Source of the DNA: a virus
Taxonomy: Duplodnaviria; Heunggongvirae; Uroviricota; Caudoviricetes
Strand: one strand, 5' to 3'
Length of the DNA stretch: 18,529 nucleotides
IMG/VR virus record: IMGVR_UViG_3300042869_000717
Location: 78,208-96,736 of that record
The position numbers and the translations under genes are program-made. Below are positions 3,938 to 18,529 of the stretch, piece by piece. The stretch's first letter is position 1; every line of letters starts with the position of its first letter. The notes under the pieces are model-generated. The model made no database searches. It was given only the letters and a program-made list of their open reading frames with translations, and was not told where the DNA came from.

Positions 3938-3983
3938 TTAATAAAAAAAAAATCCATCATATGATGGATTTTTTTTTTATTAA
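3938..3983. terminator. 46-bp perfect palindrome; likely intrinsic terminator of the tmRNA
   Basis: TTAATAAAAAAAAAATCCATCAT|ATGATGGATTTTTTTTTTATTAA; begins 2 nt beyond the tmRNA discriminator base and has A10/T10 tracts in its arms. Confidence 0.75.
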
Positions 3984-3985
3984 AG

Positions 3986-4395
3986 TGGAGATGCCGATTT
4001 CGAAATCGGGTGTTGTCCATCCTAAGTGTTTAGGTCTACACGTTTATTCAATTAATTCTCAACTGACAAATAAGAAGGTTTTAATTTTTCCATCATTACC
4101 TACAACTGTGGGAGGTTCACTTTAATAGGTAGACCCTCAAACGAGACCTTGACACTCTTCGGGTGGTATCACACCTTAAGATATTTCTGTTGCAAGGTAC
4201 ATATATCCGTCGACCCCAATGTGTGTTTGCTTACGCTACGTTCACAAGCTCATCTTGACGTACAAGACCTACTAGAGCCATTTTGTTTAAAATGTTGCCA
4301 TTTATAATTTTGTCATCCATAGATTTAAGTGATAGGAAACTTCTCACTACGTGCCCTAAATAAGTAGATATGTCAGTCAATTCCATTTCATCCCC
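3986..4395 (-). ncRNA. ssrA: tmRNA (transfer-messenger RNA)
   Basis: 5' GGGGATGAAATGGAATTGAC pairs with 3' CATCTCC-A, giving a 7-bp acceptor stem with G3.U70 and discriminator A (tRNA-Ala identity). A TTCGAA T-loop-like hairpin is present. TTTAGG/CCTAAA and CACGT/ACGTG pair as in helix 2. There is an internal tag ORF after ATAAAT|GGC. Confidence 0.93.
4231..4299 (-). other. tmRNA tag reading frame, (A)GNILNKMALVGLVRQDELVNVA*
   Basis: Resume codon GGC at 4299 inferred from the TATAAAT|GGCAAC context; 22 sense codons to TAA at 4231-4233. Confidence 0.75.
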
Positions 4396-4409
4396 CTATT
4401 ATTATGGTA

Positions 4410-4440
4410 CAAAGATAAACATAAATATTGAAATTCCAAA
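4410..4440 (-). promoter_or_regulatory. Bacteroidota-type promoter for the tmRNA
   Basis: TTTG (4440-4437), N19, TATCTTTG (4417-4410): an exact match to TTTG-N19-21-TAnnTTTG, 14 nt upstream of the mature 5' end. Confidence 0.75.
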
Positions 4441-4448
4441 CAAAAAAA

Positions 4449-4458
4449 GTATTTATTG
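4449..4458 (+). promoter_or_regulatory. TATTTAT motif, putative late promoter
   Basis: GTATTTATTG 13 nt before ATG 4472; the same core precedes five other plus-strand genes. Confidence 0.5.
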
Positions 4459-4471
4459 TAAAATCATTTTA

Positions 4472-5611
4472 ATGAAAGTAATAAAATTAACTGAATCAGA
4501 CCTTAATCATATTATCAGAAGGGTCATACAGACAGAGCAAGACACTGAAAAAGAGGAAGATAAGAACTTAGTTGTCGGTCTTAGAAATTTTTCTAAAGGT
4601 AGAATTAGTACTGACGAGTTATATAATATCGATAATACTATAGACTATATTCAAACTAAGGAACCTTTAGGTCAATCTATTATAACCATTAAATTTGAAG
4701 ATGATAAAGAATTTTTAGAAGAAATTGACATGGACGAATCAGATGTTTGGTTCATGCAAGCTATTAATTCATACAATGGATATGATTTTCAAGATTCATA
4801 TCAAATAGAACAAGATTTTAAAGAAGGGTACAATGTGTATTATGAATTGAACGATGAGAATAAAGAAACTCTTAAGGACATCGCATCCACAATATTACCT
4901 GAAAAAGAATTTAATCTCGAGAGTGAAGAATACAGACAAGAATTATCCGAAATGTTACTTGATTTATTTCCTAATGAAATTGATTATATCCTCGGGGATT
5001 TTCAATCTGAAAAAGAGCACGAAATGAATACTGTCGCAAAAAAGGCAATCGAAGATGAATTTAATAAACCGTTAGAGGAAAATGGTATTAACCTTAATTA
5101 CAATATGGATGAAGTGGAAATCACTCTTGCCGATTTATATTTGGGTGCGTTACAACTAAATTTATTTAATTCTAATGCCAAAGAGATTGTTACAAAAATA
5201 ATAAATAAGTCTTTTGGAGGGTCAACTCCTGGTGGTTGGTATGAGAAAATTTACGAGTTTCAAGATGAACAATATTTCGATTCAGTATCATTTAATAATG
5301 AGGTTACAAGACAATTTGAAAAGATTATTGAAAAATTAGATGAAAAAAGTGACGAAGAATATACAATTCAAGACTTTGTTGAATTTAGAAACCGAGTTGT
5401 ATCTAAATATAAATTAAAAACTTGGTATGAAACCCCTAAAGACGACAATATTATTTTTCAAATTGAATCGTTTAATCCGGGTAATATGTCAGTTAAATTA
5501 ATTGTCAAAACTAAAGATACCGGATTATTTAAAAAACTTGAATTGGAAGAAGAAGAATTTAACAATTTTTTATATCAAAATACCTTATTTAATTTGGATG
5601 ACATGTATTAA
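4472..5611 (+). CDS. Acidic hypothetical protein (379 aa), possibly virion-associated
   Basis: Start reassigned from 4370 (inside the tmRNA) to ATG 4472 (MKVIKLTESDLNHIIRRVI). No catalytic motif recognised. Confidence 0.8.
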   Translation: MKVIKLTESDLNHIIRRVIQTEQDTEKEEDKNLVVGLRNFSKGRISTDELYNIDNTIDYIQTKEPLGQSIITIKFEDDKEFLEEIDMDESDVWFMQAINSYNGYDFQDSYQIEQDFKEGYNVYYELNDENKETLKDIASTILPEKEFNLESEEYRQELSEMLLDLFPNEIDYILGDFQSEKEHEMNTVAKKAIEDEFNKPLEENGINLNYNMDEVEITLADLYLGALQLNLFNSNAKEIVTKIINKSFGGSTPGGWYEKIYEFQDEQYFDSVSFNNEVTRQFEKIIEKLDEKSDEEYTIQDFVEFRNRVVSKYKLKTWYETPKDDNIIFQIESFNPGNMSVKLIVKTKDTGLFKKLELEEEEFNNFLYQNTLFNLDDMY

Positions 5612-5624
5612 TTTATTACCTTTG
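5593..5624 (+). promoter_or_regulatory. Bacteroidota-type promoter for the peptidase gene
   Basis: TTTG (5593-5596), N20, TACCTTTG (5617-5624); ATG at 5629. Confidence 0.7.
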
Positions 5625-5628
5625 TCCC

Positions 5629-6471
5629 ATGACAAACGATATATTATTACTAAAAGAAGTTCTTAGTGTTCCAACCGTAACTTATAAAGAAGACCTAATG
5701 GTTGAATTTTTACAGAATTGGTTGACCGAAAACAATATAGAACATTATGTTGATGAACACAAAAATGTTTATGCAACCAAACAAGAACTTGAAACACTTC
5801 CTGAGGACTTTTACTTCCCTTGTGTTATTGCACATACTGACACAGTCCACAGATTAGACAATATAATAGTTCATGAAGAACAATTACCTAATGCTCAAGG
5901 TGAGATTAAAGATTCGTTGAAAGCTTACAACTTACATGGATTACCAACCGGAATCGGTGGTGATGATAAATGTGGAGTATTTGCTTGTTTAAAATTACTA
6001 AAAGAATTACCAAATTTAAAAGCCACTTTCTTTGTATCTGAAGAAACCGGATGTCACGGTTCCAAAAAGGCTGACCCTGAATTCTTCACTAATGTTGGTT
6101 ATGGAATTCAATTTGACGCTCCGGAGAACTGGATGATTACCGAAAAATGTTTCAGTCAAGATTTATTTGATAGAGAGTCAGAATTCTTTGAAGTTTGTGA
6201 CCAAGTATTAACCGAAGGGATGCATAACGAAGATATGCAATACATGGTTCATCCATATACTGATGTTTATGCGTTGAGAAGTAAATTTAGTTTTTCTTGT
6301 ATCAACTTTTCAATTGGGTATTACGATTACCACACACCAAACGAATATGTGGTGATTGAGGATGTTTTCAAAGGGATTGAAATGGGAAGACAAATGATTG
6401 AAAAACTTGGGAATAAGTTACACTACAAAGAAGTAGTTGAGATTCCAAGATATAATCACAGATTCTTCTAA
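5629..6471 (+). CDS. Co-catalytic zinc peptidase, clan MH (M20/M28/M42-like)
   Basis: Metal-ligand motifs IAHTDTVH, GIGGDDKCG, VSEETG, QFD and the C-terminal YHTPNE. Confidence 0.88.
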   Translation: MTNDILLLKEVLSVPTVTYKEDLMVEFLQNWLTENNIEHYVDEHKNVYATKQELETLPEDFYFPCVIAHTDTVHRLDNIIVHEEQLPNAQGEIKDSLKAYNLHGLPTGIGGDDKCGVFACLKLLKELPNLKATFFVSEETGCHGSKKADPEFFTNVGYGIQFDAPENWMITEKCFSQDLFDRESEFFEVCDQVLTEGMHNEDMQYMVHPYTDVYALRSKFSFSCINFSIGYYDYHTPNEYVVIEDVFKGIEMGRQMIEKLGNKLHYKEVVEIPRYNHRFF

Positions 6472-6476
6472 AATAT

Positions 6477-6502
6477 AAAAGAGACCAAATGGTTTCTTTT
6501 TT
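6477..6502 (+). terminator. Intrinsic terminator after the peptidase
   Basis: AAAAGAGACC-AAAT-GGTTTCTTTT hairpin followed by a T run. Confidence 0.65.
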
Positions 6503-6510
6503 GTTTTAGG

Positions 6511-6520
6511 GTATTTATTA
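6511..6520 (+). promoter_or_regulatory. TATTTAT motif, putative late promoter
   Basis: GTATTTATTA 2 nt before ATG 6523 and just after a terminator, so the gene needs its own promoter. Confidence 0.55.
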
Positions 6521-6522
6521 AT

Positions 6523-6864
6523 ATGAAAATATTAATTAACGAAAATAGGGTTGATAGTCTAATCAACAAGTGGTTGGAAGATGAATATGGAGGGTTAAAA
6601 CACAAAGTTTCTGTTGATTATCCTGACCTTTATTATTTTATGAAAAATGGTGATGTTGTTATGGAATATTATGAAAAATACGGTAGACTCGGACTTGATG
6701 ATAGTATTATAACTTTCATTATGAAAATGTTTAATAAACCGTGGTTGGAAACTAAAGAGATGGTTGCAGTATGGTTCCAAAATTCATATAATTTAGATGT
6801 TGATATTGTCATAGAACCATTATCAACTACAAGGACTATTTGGAAGTCATATTCCGACAATTAA
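6523..6864 (+). CDS. Hypothetical phage protein (113 aa)
   Basis: ORF track; bounded by terminators; N-terminus MKILINE. Confidence 0.75.
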   Translation: MKILINENRVDSLINKWLEDEYGGLKHKVSVDYPDLYYFMKNGDVVMEYYEKYGRLGLDDSIITFIMKMFNKPWLETKEMVAVWFQNSYNLDVDIVIEPLSTTRTIWKSYSDN

Positions 6865-6870
6865 CCATAT

Positions 6871-6898
6871 AAAAAAAAGGGGATTTTCATCCCCCTTT
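6871..6898. terminator. Bidirectional terminator between convergent genes
   Basis: A8-GGGGAT-TTTC-ATCCCC-CTTT between the stops at 6864 and 6903. Confidence 0.75.
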
Positions 6899-6902
6899 CT
6901 TA

Positions 6903-8918
6903 TTATTTTCCTTTTTTCTGAATTGTGATGTCCTCACCCTTCATTTTGATTTGGTAGGATTTACCCTCAACCATTTTACCGGTTAATACTTCTTCGGATA
7001 ACAAATCCTCAATTTTGTCTTGGATTGCTCTCTTCAATGGTCTTGCACCATATACTTCATCGTATCCAATTTTAGATAGGTATTTAACAACCTCATCATC
7101 GTAGGTTACGGTGTATTTCATCTCACCAAGACGAGTCATTAATTTCTTTAACTCAATATCGGTGATTTTATCGATATCTTCAGGAGTTAATGAATTAAAG
7201 ACAATAGTGTCATCAATACGGTTAATGAACTCAGGAGAAAAGAAATTCTTCATCTCTTTCATCAAGATTTCTTTCTTAGCTTCTTCGTCGGCGTAAGAGT
7301 TATTAGAGAATCCAATACCAGTACCGAAGTCTTGTAATTTCTTAACACCTAAGTTAGATGTAAGGATGATTAAGGTATTCTTGAAGTTAATCTTTCTACC
7401 TAAACTATCGGTTACGTGTCCATCATCTAATATTTGAAGTAATACCGTGAAAACATCTTTGTGAGCTTTTTCAACCTCATCAAATAAGATTACAGAATAT
7501 GGTTTGTTTTTAACTTTCTCAGTTAATAAACCTCCTTCTTCGTAACCAACATATCCCGGAGGTGCTCCAACCAATTTAGAGATGGTGTGTTTCTCTTGGT
7601 ATTCTGACATATCCACACGGATAAGTGAATCTTCTGTTCCAAACATCTCTTTAGCTAATTGTTTGGCCAAGTGAGTTTTACCAACACCGGTTGAACCTAA
7701 GAAAATAAATGAACCAATAGGTCTGTTAGGGTCTTTAATACCTAAACGGTTTCTCTTGATTGATTTTGCAATCTTAACAACAGCAGCATCCTGACCAATC
7801 ACTTTACCCATGATTGATTTATCTAAATTCATCAACGCTTTGGAATCATCAGCATCCATTTTACTCACAGGGATTTTAGTCATACTTGACACAACTTGAT
7901 ATACGGTTTCAAGAACAATAGTTTGTTTCTCCAAATCCATTTGTTTTGCAAACTTATCTTTTTCCGCCTCAAGTTTAATCAATAACTTTTTCTCCTTATC
8001 TCTAAGTTGTGCTGCTTGTTCGTAGTTTTGTTTTTTAACCACTTCCATTTTTTCAATCTTAATCTCAGCGGCTTTCTTTTTTAATTCCTCAATAACATCA
8101 GGAACTTTAATCTCGGTTTGCATACGAGCACCAACCTCATCTAAGATGTCAAATGCTTTATCCGGGAACTCACGGTCGGTGATGTAACGGTCAGCCAACT
8201 TAACACAAGTTTCCACAACTTCGTCACTATACAACACTTTGTGGTATGATTCGTATTTATCACGAACATTCTTAAGGATTTCGATTGTTTCTTCAACTGT
8301 GGATGGCTCCACAATTACTTTTTGGAATCTTCTTTCCAAGGCTCCGTCTTTCTCAATGTTCTTACGGAACTCATCAAGAGTTGTCGCACCAATACATTGA
8401 ACCTCTCCACGGGCAAGTGCCGGTTTGAAGATGTTTGAACCATCCATTGAACCTGAAGAATTACCGGAACCAACCAATGTGTGAATCTCATCGATAAACA
8501 CAATGATATTTGGATTAGCACTAAGTTCCTCGATAATCACTTTCATTCTTTCCTCAAATTGTCCACGATACTTTGTACCAGCAACAACTGAAGTTAAATC
8601 AAGGTTCACGATTCTTTTGTCCACTAAGTTTCTTGGACATTCTCCACTCACAATTTTCATAGCCAAACCTTCAACCAATGCGGTTTTACCACATCCGGGT
8701 TCACCTATGATAATAGGGTTATTCTTTTTTCTACGAGAAAGGATTTGTGCGATTCTCAAAATCTCGGCATCTCTACCAATAACCGGGTCTAATTTACCCG
8801 CCTCAGCTAGTTTATTTAAATCTCTACTGAAGTTGTCTAATACAGGTGTGTTTGTATCCATAGCTTGTTTTTGTGCTTTGTTCCCTGATTTGTCGTTGTC
8901 GTCCATTAAGTCGTTCAT
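6903..8918 (-). CDS. clpC: ClpC-type AAA+ unfoldase lacking the N-terminal Clp-repeat domain
   Basis: Two AAA+ modules (GEPGCGKT/FIDEIH and GSTGVGKT/LFDEVEKAH), pore loops KYRG and GYVG, a short UVR-type middle domain (KQNYEQAAQLRD) and the ClpP-docking loop GIGF (7308-7319). ATG 8918 preferred over the track's TTG 8951. Confidence 0.9.
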   Translation of the reverse strand: MNDLMDDNDKSGNKAQKQAMDTNTPVLDNFSRDLNKLAEAGKLDPVIGRDAEILRIAQILSRRKKNNPIIIGEPGCGKTALVEGLAMKIVSGECPRNLVDKRIVNLDLTSVVAGTKYRGQFEERMKVIIEELSANPNIIVFIDEIHTLVGSGNSSGSMDGSNIFKPALARGEVQCIGATTLDEFRKNIEKDGALERRFQKVIVEPSTVEETIEILKNVRDKYESYHKVLYSDEVVETCVKLADRYITDREFPDKAFDILDEVGARMQTEIKVPDVIEELKKKAAEIKIEKMEVVKKQNYEQAAQLRDKEKKLLIKLEAEKDKFAKQMDLEKQTIVLETVYQVVSSMTKIPVSKMDADDSKALMNLDKSIMGKVIGQDAAVVKIAKSIKRNRLGIKDPNRPIGSFIFLGSTGVGKTHLAKQLAKEMFGTEDSLIRVDMSEYQEKHTISKLVGAPPGYVGYEEGGLLTEKVKNKPYSVILFDEVEKAHKDVFTVLLQILDDGHVTDSLGRKINFKNTLIILTSNLGVKKLQDFGTGIGFSNNSYADEEAKKEILMKEMKNFFSPEFINRIDDTIVFNSLTPEDIDKITDIELKKLMTRLGEMKYTVTYDDEVVKYLSKIGYDEVYGARPLKRAIQDKIEDLLSEEVLTGKMVEGKSYQIKMKGEDITIQKKGK

Positions 8919-8975
8919 AGTTTCTAATTTTATTTTACAAAGGTGTATCAAATTTTATTCTTATCCTAATTTTTA

Positions 8976-9017
8976 GACAAATTGTCAGTAAGTTTTTTTT
9001 AACCTGACATATTGACA
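8976..9017. promoter_or_regulatory. Operator-like TGACA/TGTCA repeats in the divergent clpC/UVR intergenic region
   Basis: GACAA-A-TTGTC (8976-8986), TGTCAG-N15-CTGACA (8983-9009) and the direct repeat TGACATA x2 (9005, 9013). Confidence 0.45.
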
Positions 9018-9040
9018 TATTTTTTGGTTTGGTATATTAT
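9012..9040 (+). promoter_or_regulatory. Sigma70-like promoter upstream of the UVR gene
   Basis: TTGACA (9012-9017), N17, TATTAT (9035-9040). Could be chance in AT-rich DNA. Confidence 0.4.
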
Positions 9041-9050
9041 TTGAATAATA

Positions 9051-9058
9051 CAAAGGTA
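9051..9058 (-). promoter_or_regulatory. Bacteroidota-type -7 element oriented toward clpC
   Basis: TACCTTTG on the minus strand, the same octamer as in the peptidase promoter; no exact -33. Confidence 0.5.
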
Positions 9059-9088
9059 TAAAATAAATTTGAATTAAAAAATAAAATT

Positions 9089-9469
9089 ATGTTTGGAAAC
9101 AGAAAAAATTTTAATGACATTTTGAGAGAATTTGATAATATGTTCTCTCAGTTTGATTCTTCTCAGTTAGGGGAATGGAAATCAGAAACAAGAGTATCTG
9201 AAGATGGTACGATAAAAGTGACTTCATTCTATAGAAGTTCAGAACCAAAAACACCTAAAGGTAGTAATGGTTTAAAACGACAACTTGAGTTGGCAATCGA
9301 AAATGAAGACTTTGAGAAAGCGGTTGAGATTAGAGACCAAATCAGAAAAATGGAAACTAATCAAGAATCTATCTCTAAACTTGAAGAAGAATTAAAACAA
9401 TCAATTAAAGACCATAACTTTGAACGGTCAATTGAAATTCGTGATGAATTAAAAAAATTAAAACTTTAA
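9089..9469 (+). CDS. Tandem UVR (UvrB/UvrC motif) protein, McsA-like C-terminus; candidate Clp adaptor
   Basis: Two UVR repeats, LKRQLELAIENEDFEKAVEIRDQI and LEEELKQSIKDHNFERSIEIRDEL. No Cys, so no McsA zinc fingers. Confidence 0.8.
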   Translation: MFGNRKNFNDILREFDNMFSQFDSSQLGEWKSETRVSEDGTIKVTSFYRSSEPKTPKGSNGLKRQLELAIENEDFEKAVEIRDQIRKMETNQESISKLEEELKQSIKDHNFERSIEIRDELKKLKL

Positions 9470-9473
9470 AATC

Positions 9474-9499
9474 AAACCCCACCCTCACCGGTGGGGTTT
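9474..9499 (+). terminator. Intrinsic terminator after the UVR gene
   Basis: AAACCCCACC-CTCACC-GGTGGGGTTT, perfect 10-bp stem. Confidence 0.75.
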
Positions 9500-9517: not shown

Positions 9518-9527
9518 ATATTTATTA
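9518..9527 (+). promoter_or_regulatory. TATTTAT motif, putative late promoter
   Basis: ATATTTATTA 2 nt before ATG 9530, just after a terminator. Confidence 0.55.
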
Positions 9528-10061: not shown

Positions 10062-10070
10062 TATTTATAA
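10061..10070 (+). promoter_or_regulatory. TATTTAT motif, putative late promoter
   Basis: GTATTTATAA 2 nt before ATG 10073. Confidence 0.55.
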
Positions 10071-10836: not shown

Positions 10837-10849
10837 ATATTTATAAATA
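10837..10849 (+). promoter_or_regulatory. Palindromic TATTTATAAATA; contains both TATTTAT and the T4 late consensus TATAAATA
   Basis: 12-bp palindrome 10838-10849 upstream of ATG 10858. Confidence 0.55.
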
Positions 10850-12988: not shown

Positions 12989-13814
12989 TACGAAAGCATT
13001 AGAGCTTATTGAAAAAGGACTATCGTCAAAAACTGTCAGTAATTTAACTGAATCTCAAATTAATGTGTTACACAGTAAGCTTGTGAATGAACAAGTAGTT
13101 CAAAAACAAACTACAAAATACGAGATAGGACCTCAAGGGGGGAGCTTACCTTCAGCACCTAAAGGTTACGCTGTTAAAACAGACCCTGTCACTAAAAAAA
13201 CAATTGCGGTTGCAGCGGAAGGGGAAATTGAAGAAGATGAAACTCTTAATGTCACTAAAGACCCTGATGCGACCGACGATGGAATGGGTATTTTTGAAAC
13301 TGAAAAAACAGGAAAATCAAACCCATGGGCTATTTGTCATGCACAAGTTGGTCCAAAAAAAACAAGAAAATTTGAAAGATGTGTACAATCTGTAAAAAAA
13401 CAGTTGGGGGAAGGAAAAAATGTTGTATCTTTGTTCCTTGAAAATGAAATTATGAAAATAGTAGAGAGAAATTTACCTCCAAGAATTACTAAAGGTGAAC
13501 TTGTTAAATATCTTACAGAGGCCGAAACGGCACCTGCACCAACAAGAGTGAAACCGACAACAAAACCGGGAACAAGACCAAGTCATCCGGGTAAAAATCC
13601 AAACCCTGGTGTTAATCCAGCCCCAAAAGCTAAAGGAGATACTGAAGTTGCACCAACAAGAGTGAAACCGACAACAAAACCGGGAACAAGACCAAGTCAT
13701 CCGGGTAAAAATCCAAACCCTGGTGTTAATCCAGCCCCAAAGGCTAATAGACCTTCTCCGGAAGAAGCTAAAGATAAAATCATGGATGTAATTATGCAAA
13801 TCTTAGAAAAATAA
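12978..13814 (+). CDS. Hypothetical protein with a duplicated Pro-rich repeat (278 aa)
   Basis: Start reassigned from TTG 12960 to ATG 12978 (MKINTKALELIEKG). Confidence 0.8.
   Translation: MKINTKALELIEKGLSSKTVSNLTESQINVLHSKLVNEQVVQKQTTKYEIGPQGGSLPSAPKGYAVKTDPVTKKTIAVAAEGEIEEDETLNVTKDPDATDDGMGIFETEKTGKSNPWAICHAQVGPKKTRKFERCVQSVKKQLGEGKNVVSLFLENEIMKIVERNLPPRITKGELVKYLTEAETAPAPTRVKPTTKPGTRPSHPGKNPNPGVNPAPKAKGDTEVAPTRVKPTTKPGTRPSHPGKNPNPGVNPAPKANRPSPEEAKDKIMDVIMQILEK
13535..13747 (+). repeat. Direct repeat, 2 x 99 bp, period 114 bp, one mismatch
   Basis: 13535-13633 versus 13649-13747; encodes APTRVKPTTKPGTRPSHPGKNPNPGVNPAPKA twice. Confidence 0.95.
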
Positions 13815-16892: not shown

Positions 16893-16902
16893 CTATTTAT
16901 AT
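16893..16902 (+). promoter_or_regulatory. TATTTAT motif, putative late promoter for portal
   Basis: CTATTTATAT 27 nt before ATG 16930. Confidence 0.5.
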
Positions 16903-16929: not shown

Positions 16930-18529
16930 ATGAGCGAACAACAAAATAATATGACGGTATGGCAGAGATTATCCCAAACATTTGGGCCTAATTCTCAATT
17001 AAACCAAGATTATCCAACTTTTAAGTTTGATAAAAAGGAATTACTACGTACCAAAAGTAAAGAAGAATACGAGAAAGAAAAGTTACAGGCGCAACAAACC
17101 TTTTATTTAACCAATCAATGGGCAAAAGTTGAGAATAATTTATATTCTCAGGCAATATATTATGAACCGTCAAGATTATCGGCACAATACGATTATGAAA
17201 GTATGGAATATTGCATCGCCGGAGACACAAAAATAGCAACTCCTGATGGTTTTATAACCATAAAAGAACTTGCTGACAAAGGCAGAGATTACGAATTTAT
17301 CACTTATTCGTATGACCACAATTTGAAAAAAGTCGTACCCTCAAAGGCTCGAAATGCACATTACACTCGAGATGAAATGACATATAAAGTTATTTTTGAC
17401 GATGGTTCATTTATTATCACAACATGGGAACACCAATTAATGAAAAGAGATGGGTCATTTGAGAGAGTTATGAACCTCAAAGACGGGGATTCTATGATGC
17501 CGTTTTATCGTAAATCATTTTATAATAACCAAAACTATAATTGGGTTTACACTTGCAATAAAGATGAAGGACACCATGGGTGGGTATCAGAACATAGTTT
17601 AATTGCAAAATGGTATAATGAAGTAGAAATAAAAGACAACGAAGAAGTACACCATATTGATTTTAATGGGAAAAATAATCTTCCTGAAAATTTATTAATT
17701 ATGGATATTTCAGAACATAGAGCATATCATGCAAGATTGAATAATGAAAAATTATGGTCTAATCCTGAGTATAGATTAAAAATGTCTGAAGTTGCCAAAC
17801 GTAAAGGTAAAATGACTTGGGGTGGAAAACGTAAAGGTAATAAAAATCCAGCATATTTTTCGATACCTTTTGACAATATCATTGAAACGGCGAGAATTGA
17901 GAAATCTTTGAAAAAAACATCTTTAAAGTTGAATGTTTCATACAGGAAATTACAAAGAGATATTACAAATTCCGGTTACAAAGATTGGTCAACATTCCTC
18001 GACGCTTATGGTATTGAAAAATCAAAATACTCTACGTCAAAAAGTGTGGGGTCTTCAATTAATTTGAATCATAAAATAGTGTCAATAGAACCTAATGGAG
18101 TTATTCCTGTTTATGATTTAACAGTTCCCGGATATAAAAACTTTGCAACAGATACTATATTTTCCCATAACACTCCTGAAATATCAGCAGCGTTAGACAT
18201 TTATGCGGAAGAATCAACCACAACAAATGAAGATGGGTTTATATTACAAATTTATTCAGAGTCAAACAGAATAAAAGGGGTATTAGCCGACTTGTTTAAT
18301 AACTCACTTGACATTAACACTAACCTACCAATGTGGACAAGAAACACTTGCAAGTATGGTGATAACTTTATTTTTTTAAAATTAGACCCTGAAAAAGGAA
18401 TTGTAGGTGTTCAACAATTACCAACAATCGAGATTGAAAGACATGAAGTAGGGGTAAGTGCAAAAATATCGACTGACATAACTAAAGAATTAGATAAAGA
18501 CAAAAAATCTCTTCATTTTACTTGGAAGA
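16930..18529 (+). CDS. Portal protein (T4 gp20-like), intein-interrupted, 3' truncated by window edge; missing from ORF track
   Basis: Manual translation from ATG 16930 (MSEQQNNMTVWQRLSQTFG...) is open to the end. The spliced junction YDYESMEY|TPEISAALDIYAEEST, followed by WTRNTCKYGDNF, fits T4-like portal N-termini. Directly follows terL. Confidence 0.85.
   Translation, partial: MSEQQNNMTVWQRLSQTFGPNSQLNQDYPTFKFDKKELLRTKSKEEYEKEKLQAQQTFYLTNQWAKVENNLYSQAIYYEPSRLSAQYDYESMEYCIAGDTKIATPDGFITIKELADKGRDYEFITYSYDHNLKKVVPSKARNAHYTRDEMTYKVIFDDGSFIITTWEHQLMKRDGSFERVMNLKDGDSMMPFYRKSFYNNQNYNWVYTCNKDEGHHGWVSEHSLIAKWYNEVEIKDNEEVHHIDFNGKNNLPENLLIMDISEHRAYHARLNNEKLWSNPEYRLKMSEVAKRKGKMTWGGKRKGNKNPAYFSIPFDNIIETARIEKSLKKTSLKLNVSYRKLQRDITNSGYKDWSTFLDAYGIEKSKYSTSKSVGSSINLNHKIVSIEPNGVIPVYDLTVPGYKNFATDTIFSHNTPEISAALDIYAEESTTTNEDGFILQIYSESNRIKGVLADLFNNSLDINTNLPMWTRNTCKYGDNFIFLKLDPEKGIVGVQQLPTIEIERHEVGVSAKISTDITKELDKDKKSLHFTWK
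17212..18171 (+). mobile_element. Intein (320 aa) with an HNH homing endonuclease
   Basis: Block A CIAGDTKIATPDG, block B IITTWEHQLM, block F/G IVSIEPNGVIPVYDLTVPGYKNFATDTIFSHN, +1 Thr. HNH core EEVHHIDFNGKNNLPENLLIMDISEHRAYH (17641-17730). Confidence 0.93.

Follow-up and report, generated by a model that had tools for sequence, protein, structure and literature searches.

Transfer-messenger RNAs (tmRNAs), ClpP and Clp ATPases are each on record in phages, and a joint function for them is not established (PMC7162821, PMC7824862, PMC12484599). Thus, tmRNAs and SmpB have been reported in huge phages (PMC7162821); ClpP, ClpA or ClpX, ClpS and Hsp20 have been reported in jumbo phages (PMC7824862); and phage G carries a tmRNA, with a tag ending in QVA, alongside ClpP and ClpX (PMC12484599). 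Here we analyze a stretch of 18,529 nucleotides of virus DNA (IMG/VR record IMGVR_UViG_3300042869_000717, positions 78,208 to 96,736; hereafter the window), in which a tmRNA, an M20-type peptidase, a ClpC with an IGF loop and a twin-UVR protein lie within 5.5 kb. An earlier, sequence-only reading had picked out these four features, all of which are confirmed here, and had proposed that they form a route in which a private tag is read by the phage ClpC on borrowed host ClpP. Like phage G, the present phage combines a tmRNA with ClpP, which it encodes itself; unlike phage G, its Clp ATPase is not ClpX but a ClpC that lacks the N-domain (N-less ClpC). We propose that the locus probably belongs to a toolkit for proteostasis and translation rescue, consisting of a tmRNA plus a phage ClpCP protease.

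The window is the final 18.5 kb of a 96.7-kb fragment (31.7% G+C, estimated completeness ~32%). Related contigs, including one that bears terminal repeats, reach 321–326 kb; the window also encodes a T4-type large terminase (TerL) and a portal gene; relatives encode a gp21-type prohead protease (S77); and the stretch is present in at least 18 DNA runs from lake water. On these grounds the source is a freshwater T4-like jumbo phage of ~320 kb. Its host is probably a member of the Bacteroidota, judging from promoter type and the nearest ClpC homologues. A megablast search of the interval against GenBank phages gave zero matches. The clade used for comparison consists of the best 80 ClpC loci, at 78–97% identity to the window ClpC; some counts (tmRNA tags, upstream stretches and proteins of the slot beside clpC) were taken over distinct sequences.

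The tmRNA and its tag

In common with the standard one-piece tmRNA (SsrA, RF00023), the phage RNA has a tRNA-like domain with a G3:U70 pair, a resume codon and a tag that ends in a hydrophobic stretch and alanine. It passes the RF00023 gathering threshold (50.6 bits, cut-off 47); ARAGORN missed it at default settings and recovered it at -ps90. The 7-bp acceptor stem, GGGGAUG/CAUCUCC, bears G3:U70 as the alanine identity pair, and the T-arm can be read in the sequence with UUCGAAA as its loop, which together make up an alanine-accepting tRNA-like domain. The 3′ CCA is incompletely encoded, with A-C-U-U after the acceptor stem where relatives encode ACCA, and CCA would therefore need to be added post-transcriptionally. 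An encoded 3′ CCA is not universal among tmRNA genes. The resume codon GGC, the open tag frame and the TAA stop are kept in relatives, whose tmRNAs score 54.8–98.6 bits against RF00023 (43 of 50 records above the cut-off), and nhmmer found a tmRNA in every one of the 68 related loci that extend far enough. We regard the phage tmRNA as well supported.

Natural loss of the tmRNA was considered for four long relatives in which Rfam gave no match, and was rejected, since each has a tmRNA after all, with a tRNA-like domain that has diverged. These variants (L035:15254-15671, L028, L077 and L079), which Rfam misses entirely, retain tag and body and have another tRNA-like domain in place of the usual one; it has GGCGGUA as a non-canonical T-loop, and compensatory changes maintain its acceptor stem.

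The tag frame is open over 20–22 codons in 54 of 56 distinct tmRNAs of relatives, and the tag is typically 21–22 residues long in the clade. Residues G1, K6 and G11 are invariant in the alignment; the penultimate position tolerates A, G, T, V, E or K. The invariance of these three residues, together with a codon entropy that is highest at third positions (0.88 versus 0.59 and 0.46), points to selection on the tag as a peptide. The tag differs from those encoded in four genomes that were picked from the ClpC matches and come from Flavobacteriales or allied Bacteroidota; there we read the 9-residue tags GENNYALAA, GEYNYAMAA and DNTSYRLAA; the Flavobacteriales tags end in [LM]AA. The description of the tag as private has thus held up, in so far as the tag is long, conserved as a peptide and unlike the GENNYALAA type. 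A further difference from the standard system is that SmpB (PF01668) was not found in the fragment, nor in two complete relatives, so that the tmRNA presumably relies on host SmpB.

Metatranscriptome contigs of relatives (90–95% alike) had a word depth of 65–132 on the tmRNA versus 3–8 on clpC and the peptidase gene in two runs of one freshwater study; as contig depth cannot rank genes and DNA may be present, this is no more than a hint that the tmRNA exists as RNA and says nothing on timing.

N-less ClpC and the phage ClpP

The phage ClpC contains two AAA+ modules (AAA, AAA_lid_9, AAA_2 and ClpB_D2-small domains), with intact Walker A and B motifs and the pore loops KYRG and GYVG. Its short M-domain, which aligns to that of Staphylococcus aureus ClpC, holds one UVR motif (PF02151, 23.5 bits), and the ClpP-docking loop in the second ring, which aligns with the S. 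aureus loop, reads G-T-G-I-G-F, with IGF kept. These features are common to the bacterial ClpC of ClpCP (S. aureus, 6em8; Bacillus subtilis, 3j3s; Bacteroidota), with ~50–60% identity over residues 144–800. What sets the phage protein apart is the loss of the whole Clp_N domain (~150 aa), which is not encoded elsewhere in the genome either. Thus, the alignment to S. aureus ClpC (E 5e-222) begins at residue 144 and covers only residues 144–800, from which the absence of the N-domain follows; the likely start codon, an ATG at 8918, gives a protein of 671 aa; and Clp_N (PF02861) was not found anywhere in five related genomes. The nearest cellular homologues (56–61% identity) are almost all from Bacteroidota, mostly Flavobacteriales, and carry an N-domain, the Clp_N double repeat being present in Flavobacterium ClpC. 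With Clp_N missing, MecA, ClpS or phospho-arginine would have no place to dock on the phage ClpC.

The sequence-only reading had noted that neither smpB nor clpP is present in the window. This is true of the window itself, but a search of the rest of the fragment, which yielded no smpB, located a phage clpP ~23 kb upstream. The encoded protein has a full-length CLP_protease domain (S14, 171 bits), its best solved match is Streptococcus pneumoniae ClpP (1y7o, E 2.4e-47) with the Ser-His-Asp positions aligned, and the gene was found in all five long relatives. It is distinct from the head protease, for which relatives hold the separate S77 enzyme mentioned above. ClpC is the single AAA_2 gene per genome, which makes it the sole candidate ATPase partner for the phage ClpP. 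In a set of 15 ClpP-bearing jumbo-phage records, 13 also have a ClpC of N-less size (open frames of 672–714 aa). We therefore regard a phage ClpC–ClpP protease as well supported, its assembly being predicted from the sequences. The phage can accordingly be predicted to run its own Clp degradation route, as had been suggested, given an IGF-loop ClpC that is its only AAA_2 ATPase and a genuine ClpP. The suggestion that it borrows host ClpP, on the other hand, is contradicted by a clpP of its own that is conserved in relatives.

As a side observation, ClpP evolves much faster than ClpC when the same genomes are compared; at L028/L225 and other pairs of loci that lie on one contig, identity to the window's proteins is ~60% for ClpP versus 84% for ClpC.

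The slot divergent from clpC

In the window, the slot divergent from clpC is occupied by the gene for the twin-UVR protein, which has no cysteine across 23 aligned members. This is the case in about two-thirds of relatives, and in the remaining third or so the slot holds an Hsp20 (38 versus 25 distinct sequences), as at L010:9427-9828(-), where the alpha-crystallin domain (PF00011) is recognized with E 6.8e-13. The two proteins are mutually exclusive in two complete genomes; the complete genome G039 is without twin-UVR and has Hsp20. Only one or two switches between them are needed on the ClpC tree. A derivation of one protein from the other was dropped as an idea, because BLASTP and hhalign show no homology. 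Judged by where its gene lies, the twin-UVR protein seems to be a proteostasis accessory that can be exchanged, and not the fixed partner of ClpC that it had been taken for.

An automatic annotation of the Joint Genome Institute names this protein McsA. The resemblance consists of a UvrB/UvrC motif and a place beside clpC. However, the twin-UVR protein has no Cys zinc fingers and carries two UVR motifs where McsA has one, a search of five genomes gave no McsB kinase (PF00217), and the phage ClpC is without the N-domain that reads phospho-arginine. Among the 120 matches listed in a homologue search, all belong to the same metagenomic family and none is a cellular relative. An AlphaFold2 model of the protein has a mean pLDDT (predicted local distance difference test) of 64.5, which is too low to base a fold search on, and a predicted complex with ClpC (residues 12–682) scored 0.13 against a mark of 0.32, which gives no verdict and was used neither way.

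Linkage of the tmRNA to Clp genes

All 80 ClpC loci share a single collinear block that runs from the terminase through the tmRNA, and the tmRNA lies 2.4–8.5 kb from clpC in this clade; the same distance holds for every tmRNA detected in the ClpP-bearing large genomes. A second arrangement is found on the G058 and G059 contigs, where clpC, peptidase, tmRNA and clpP follow each other inside ~13 kb. In a third, from another lineage reached through the ClpP search (ClpP 53–56% identical), the tmRNA starts 113–700 nt after clpP on the same strand; the tags of this lineage differ, having 25–26 residues, and DnaJ and a metallopeptidase are encoded just upstream. Adjacency of tmRNA and Clp genes in three arrangements is suggestive of a link.

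In the clpP–tmRNA lineage we also observed that the CCA-adding enzyme is apparently split (L254:13993-16074), with a DUF559 endonuclease-like open reading frame (ORF) between the head and RNA-binding domains.

Promoters

The Bacteroidota-type motif TAnnTTTG occurs at 44 sites in the window versus 28 expected, a number reached in none of 200 shuffles. Of the 51 distinct sequences that precede the tmRNA in relatives, 42 keep the −7 box, at 8–21 nt from the 5′ end, and a similarly conserved box precedes clpC (Table 1). Outside the window, clpP has the motif 15–17 nt before its ATG in six of six cases. The UVR gene lacks a conserved copy (1 of 37). At the peptidase gene, TACCTTTG stands 5 nt before the ATG (window 5617–5624), and TAnnTTTG precedes the gene in 58 of 61 distinct upstream sequences, mostly 0–9 nt before the ATG (55 of 61 distinct relatives); so close a position would imply a leaderless mRNA or another role for the motif.

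A second motif, TATTTAT, precedes orf413 by 15 nt and orf113 by 4 nt, and is found before the nucleotidyltransferase-like gene in 64 of 64 relatives. The two promoter classes distinguished by the sequence-only reading are thus real, as is the conserved host-type promoter common to tmRNA, peptidase gene and clpC. TATTTAT is not enriched overall in the window (16 sites versus 13 expected); copies at 10062–10068, 6512–6518, 4450–4456, 9519–9525, 10838–10844 and 16894–16900 lie 4–30 nt before plus-strand start codons.

Peptidase and other features

The peptidase matches Pfam M20 marginally (24.8 bits, cut-off 24.6) and PHROG 4191 'peptidase' with E 3.7e-31. Its metal and catalytic residues align to those of Peptidase T (PepT; HxD, DD, EE, D, H); it differs from Peptidase T and the M20 family in being 280 aa long, without the lid/dimerization domain. 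It is a conserved neighbour, for which a role in the recycling of degradation products is unsupported.

Two further ORFs lie between the features discussed above. One is orf413, outside the proposed system, which has a probable N-terminus of MKVIKLTESDL (window 4472–4504) and no Pfam or PHROG match to any known family; the other is orf113. Their coordinates, with those of the other features, are collected in Table 1.

Three side observations concern the rest of the window and the fragment. The portal gene (window 17212–18171) apparently contains an in-frame intein with an HNH-type segment, as read from the ORF translation only. A 284-aa ORF has a tandem duplication of a proline-rich segment of ~35 residues (APTRVKPTTKPGTRPSHPGKNPNPGVNPAPKA; window 13470–13800). 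Finally, ARAGORN predicts 23 tRNA genes on the fragment, 7–24 kb upstream of the window, and inside this array, at G000:C1:71388-71464, a tRNA with a four-base anticodon (gtaa).

Table 1. Coordinates of the features discussed (window positions unless another record is given).
Feature	Position	Strand	Basis and remarks
Intrinsic terminator after tmRNA	3939..3982	-	Sequence; strong
One-piece tmRNA (ssrA)	3983..4395	-	Rfam RF00023, ARAGORN -ps90, sequence reading
Tag reading frame, 22 codons + TAA, GNILNKMALVGLVRQDELVNVA	4231..4299	-	ARAGORN -ps90
Bacteroidota-type tmRNA promoter: TTTG (4437-4440), 19 nt, TATCTTTG (4410-4417)	4410..4440	-	Canonical; 14 nt before 5′ end
orf413, probable start M35	4472..5611	+	Conserved in relatives
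Lid-less M20/PepT-like metallopeptidase, 280 aa	5629..6471	+	Pfam, PHROG, PepT alignment
Peptidase terminator	6477-6500		
orf113, no assigned family, closest relatives only	6523..6864	+	Pfam, PHROG, synteny
clpC, ClpC-type double AAA+ unfoldase without N-domain	6903..8951	-	Pfam, alignment to S. aureus ClpC
TACCTTTG, −7 box upstream of clpC	9051..9058	-	Kept in 37/45 relatives
Cys-free twin-UVR protein, 126 aa	9089..9469	+	Two PF02151 motifs; divergent from clpC
Terminator of twin-UVR gene	9474-9499		
clpP, phage-encoded	G000:C1:54784-55527	-	Pfam 171 bits; ~23 kb upstream of window

Discussion

The explanation that we find best, and on balance probable, is that the locus belongs to a proteostasis and translation-rescue toolkit of a jumbo phage, made up of the tmRNA and the phage ClpCP. 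The tmRNA would be transcribed from its host-type promoter, presumably charged by the host alanyl-tRNA synthetase and, because the phage has no SmpB, presumably delivered by that of the host; it would free stalled ribosomes and append a 22-residue, phage-specific tag. The N-less ClpC, as the only Clp ATPase of the phage, would dock via its IGF loop on the phage ClpP, and the resulting ClpCP would be blind to the host controls that depend on the N-domain (MecA, ClpS and phospho-arginine). The twin-UVR protein would be an exchangeable accessory in the Hsp20 slot, most likely a holder or adaptor, or else a regulator of the M-domain, and the lid-less M20 peptidase a conserved neighbour with no substrate assigned. 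That tagged chains are among the substrates of the phage ClpCP, the step that would couple tag to protease, is plausible, unproven and, in our estimate, fairly unlikely.

Having proposed such a toolkit, we would note several points that weigh against it. First, no result ties the tag to ClpC. Second, although the genes are linked in relatives, as had been expected of a system, the entire block is collinear in all 80 of them, so that synteny is not specific to the four genes and is uninformative, and the UVR gene is replaced by that for Hsp20 in about one-third. Moreover, a single ancestral cluster may have given rise to all three linked arrangements, in which case they would not be independent. 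Third, each of the four genes forms a transcription unit of its own and is followed by a terminator, and the host-type box is found on 24–37 of the 161 ORFs of the fragment. The idea that a shared promoter marks these genes as a module is thus not supported, and timing in common with about thirty further genes says little in favour of a dedicated module. Fourth, some genomes speak against an obligate coupling. Four more distant, near-complete jumbo phages (344–483 kb) have ClpP and a ClpC of N-less size and no detectable tmRNA, whether by Rfam over the whole genome or in the vicinity of clpC, and in the huge GenBank phages LR745206, LR756508 and LR756501 the genes for ClpC, ClpP, tmRNA and SmpB are scattered or partly missing, the tmRNA of LR756508 being 362 kb away from ClpC. 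Last, promoter type and the nearest ClpC homologues are the only bases of the host assignment.

Alternatively, the locus may hold two unrelated modules whose adjacency is simply inherited, a reading that we rate as somewhat improbable. The tmRNA would then belong to a translation-maintenance set, together with at least 23 tRNAs and RNA repair, and would only free ribosomes stalled by host nucleases or mRNA decay; ClpCP, with Hsp20, twin-UVR and DnaJ, would handle other clients, for instance misfolded virion proteins or host proteins, and tagged chains would go to host proteases. The separate transcription units, the occurrence of ClpC and ClpP without tmRNA in the four jumbo phages and the distant tmRNA of LR756508 all agree with such a division, as do the tRNA array upstream of the window and a gene with the RNA-repair domain HAD_SAK_2, at a distance of 1.2 kb from the tmRNA and with conserved synteny in relatives. 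Likewise, the presence of Hsp20 in the partner slot suggests that the clients are misfolded proteins in general. Disagreeing with it, however, the tmRNA lies as close as 113 nt from clpP on the same strand in the other lineage, and between clpC and clpP on the G058 and G059 contigs. In addition, the N-terminal and middle parts of the tag are conserved and the penultimate residue is free, which is not the pattern expected of an LAA end of the type read by host ClpX.

The most far-reaching version of the toolkit proposal is one that we consider unlikely. The conserved tag of 21–22 residues would here be a phage-private degron, added by the phage tmRNA on ribosomes of the host and read by the N-less ClpC and phage ClpP either directly or via the twin-UVR or Hsp20 accessory, and it would be poorly read by host ClpXP, because its penultimate residue is free to vary.

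It is also conceivable, with a low probability, that the main task of ClpC lies in virion assembly, where it would serve with Hsp20 and DnaJ as a stand-alone unfoldase or disaggregase, and that ClpP has a separate role. Hsp20 is encoded beside clpC in one-third of relatives, DnaJ is encoded in the complete relatives, clpC adjoins a late/structural block that includes TerL and portal, and assembly roles have been proposed for ClpA and ClpX in a jumbo-phage review (PMC7824862). Nevertheless, the IGF loop is retained, ClpC and ClpP occur together in 13 of the 15 ClpP-bearing records, no other ATPase could partner the phage ClpP, and the promoter of clpC is of the host type, not the late-gene motif. 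The sequence-only reading in its full form, with host ClpP borrowed, twin-UVR as obligate partner and the peptidase recycling products, agrees with the IGF loop and with the divergent pairing of the UVR gene and clpC in about two-thirds of relatives, but is very improbable now that the phage is seen to have its own conserved ClpP, which largely contradicts borrowing, G039 to have Hsp20 in place of twin-UVR, the UVR gene to lack a conserved host-type promoter and the peptidase step to be unsupported.

The toolkit proposal, together with its rivals, can be approached in a clade that is abundant in lakes and that offers a clear-cut test case, with a single Clp ATPase that lacks the regulatory domain, a single ClpP and a tag distinct from that of the likely host lineage, as well as natural variants in which Hsp20 replaces twin-UVR or clpP is adjacent or distant. 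If the tag is not read by the phage protease, the pair of N-less ClpC and ClpP would still be a recurrent jumbo-phage protease whose substrates are to be found. If the private-degron version is true, the phage would possess a quality-control channel insulated from host regulation. And should the phage protease turn out to read the tag, by whichever route, this would be the first virus-owned tag-and-degrade pathway.

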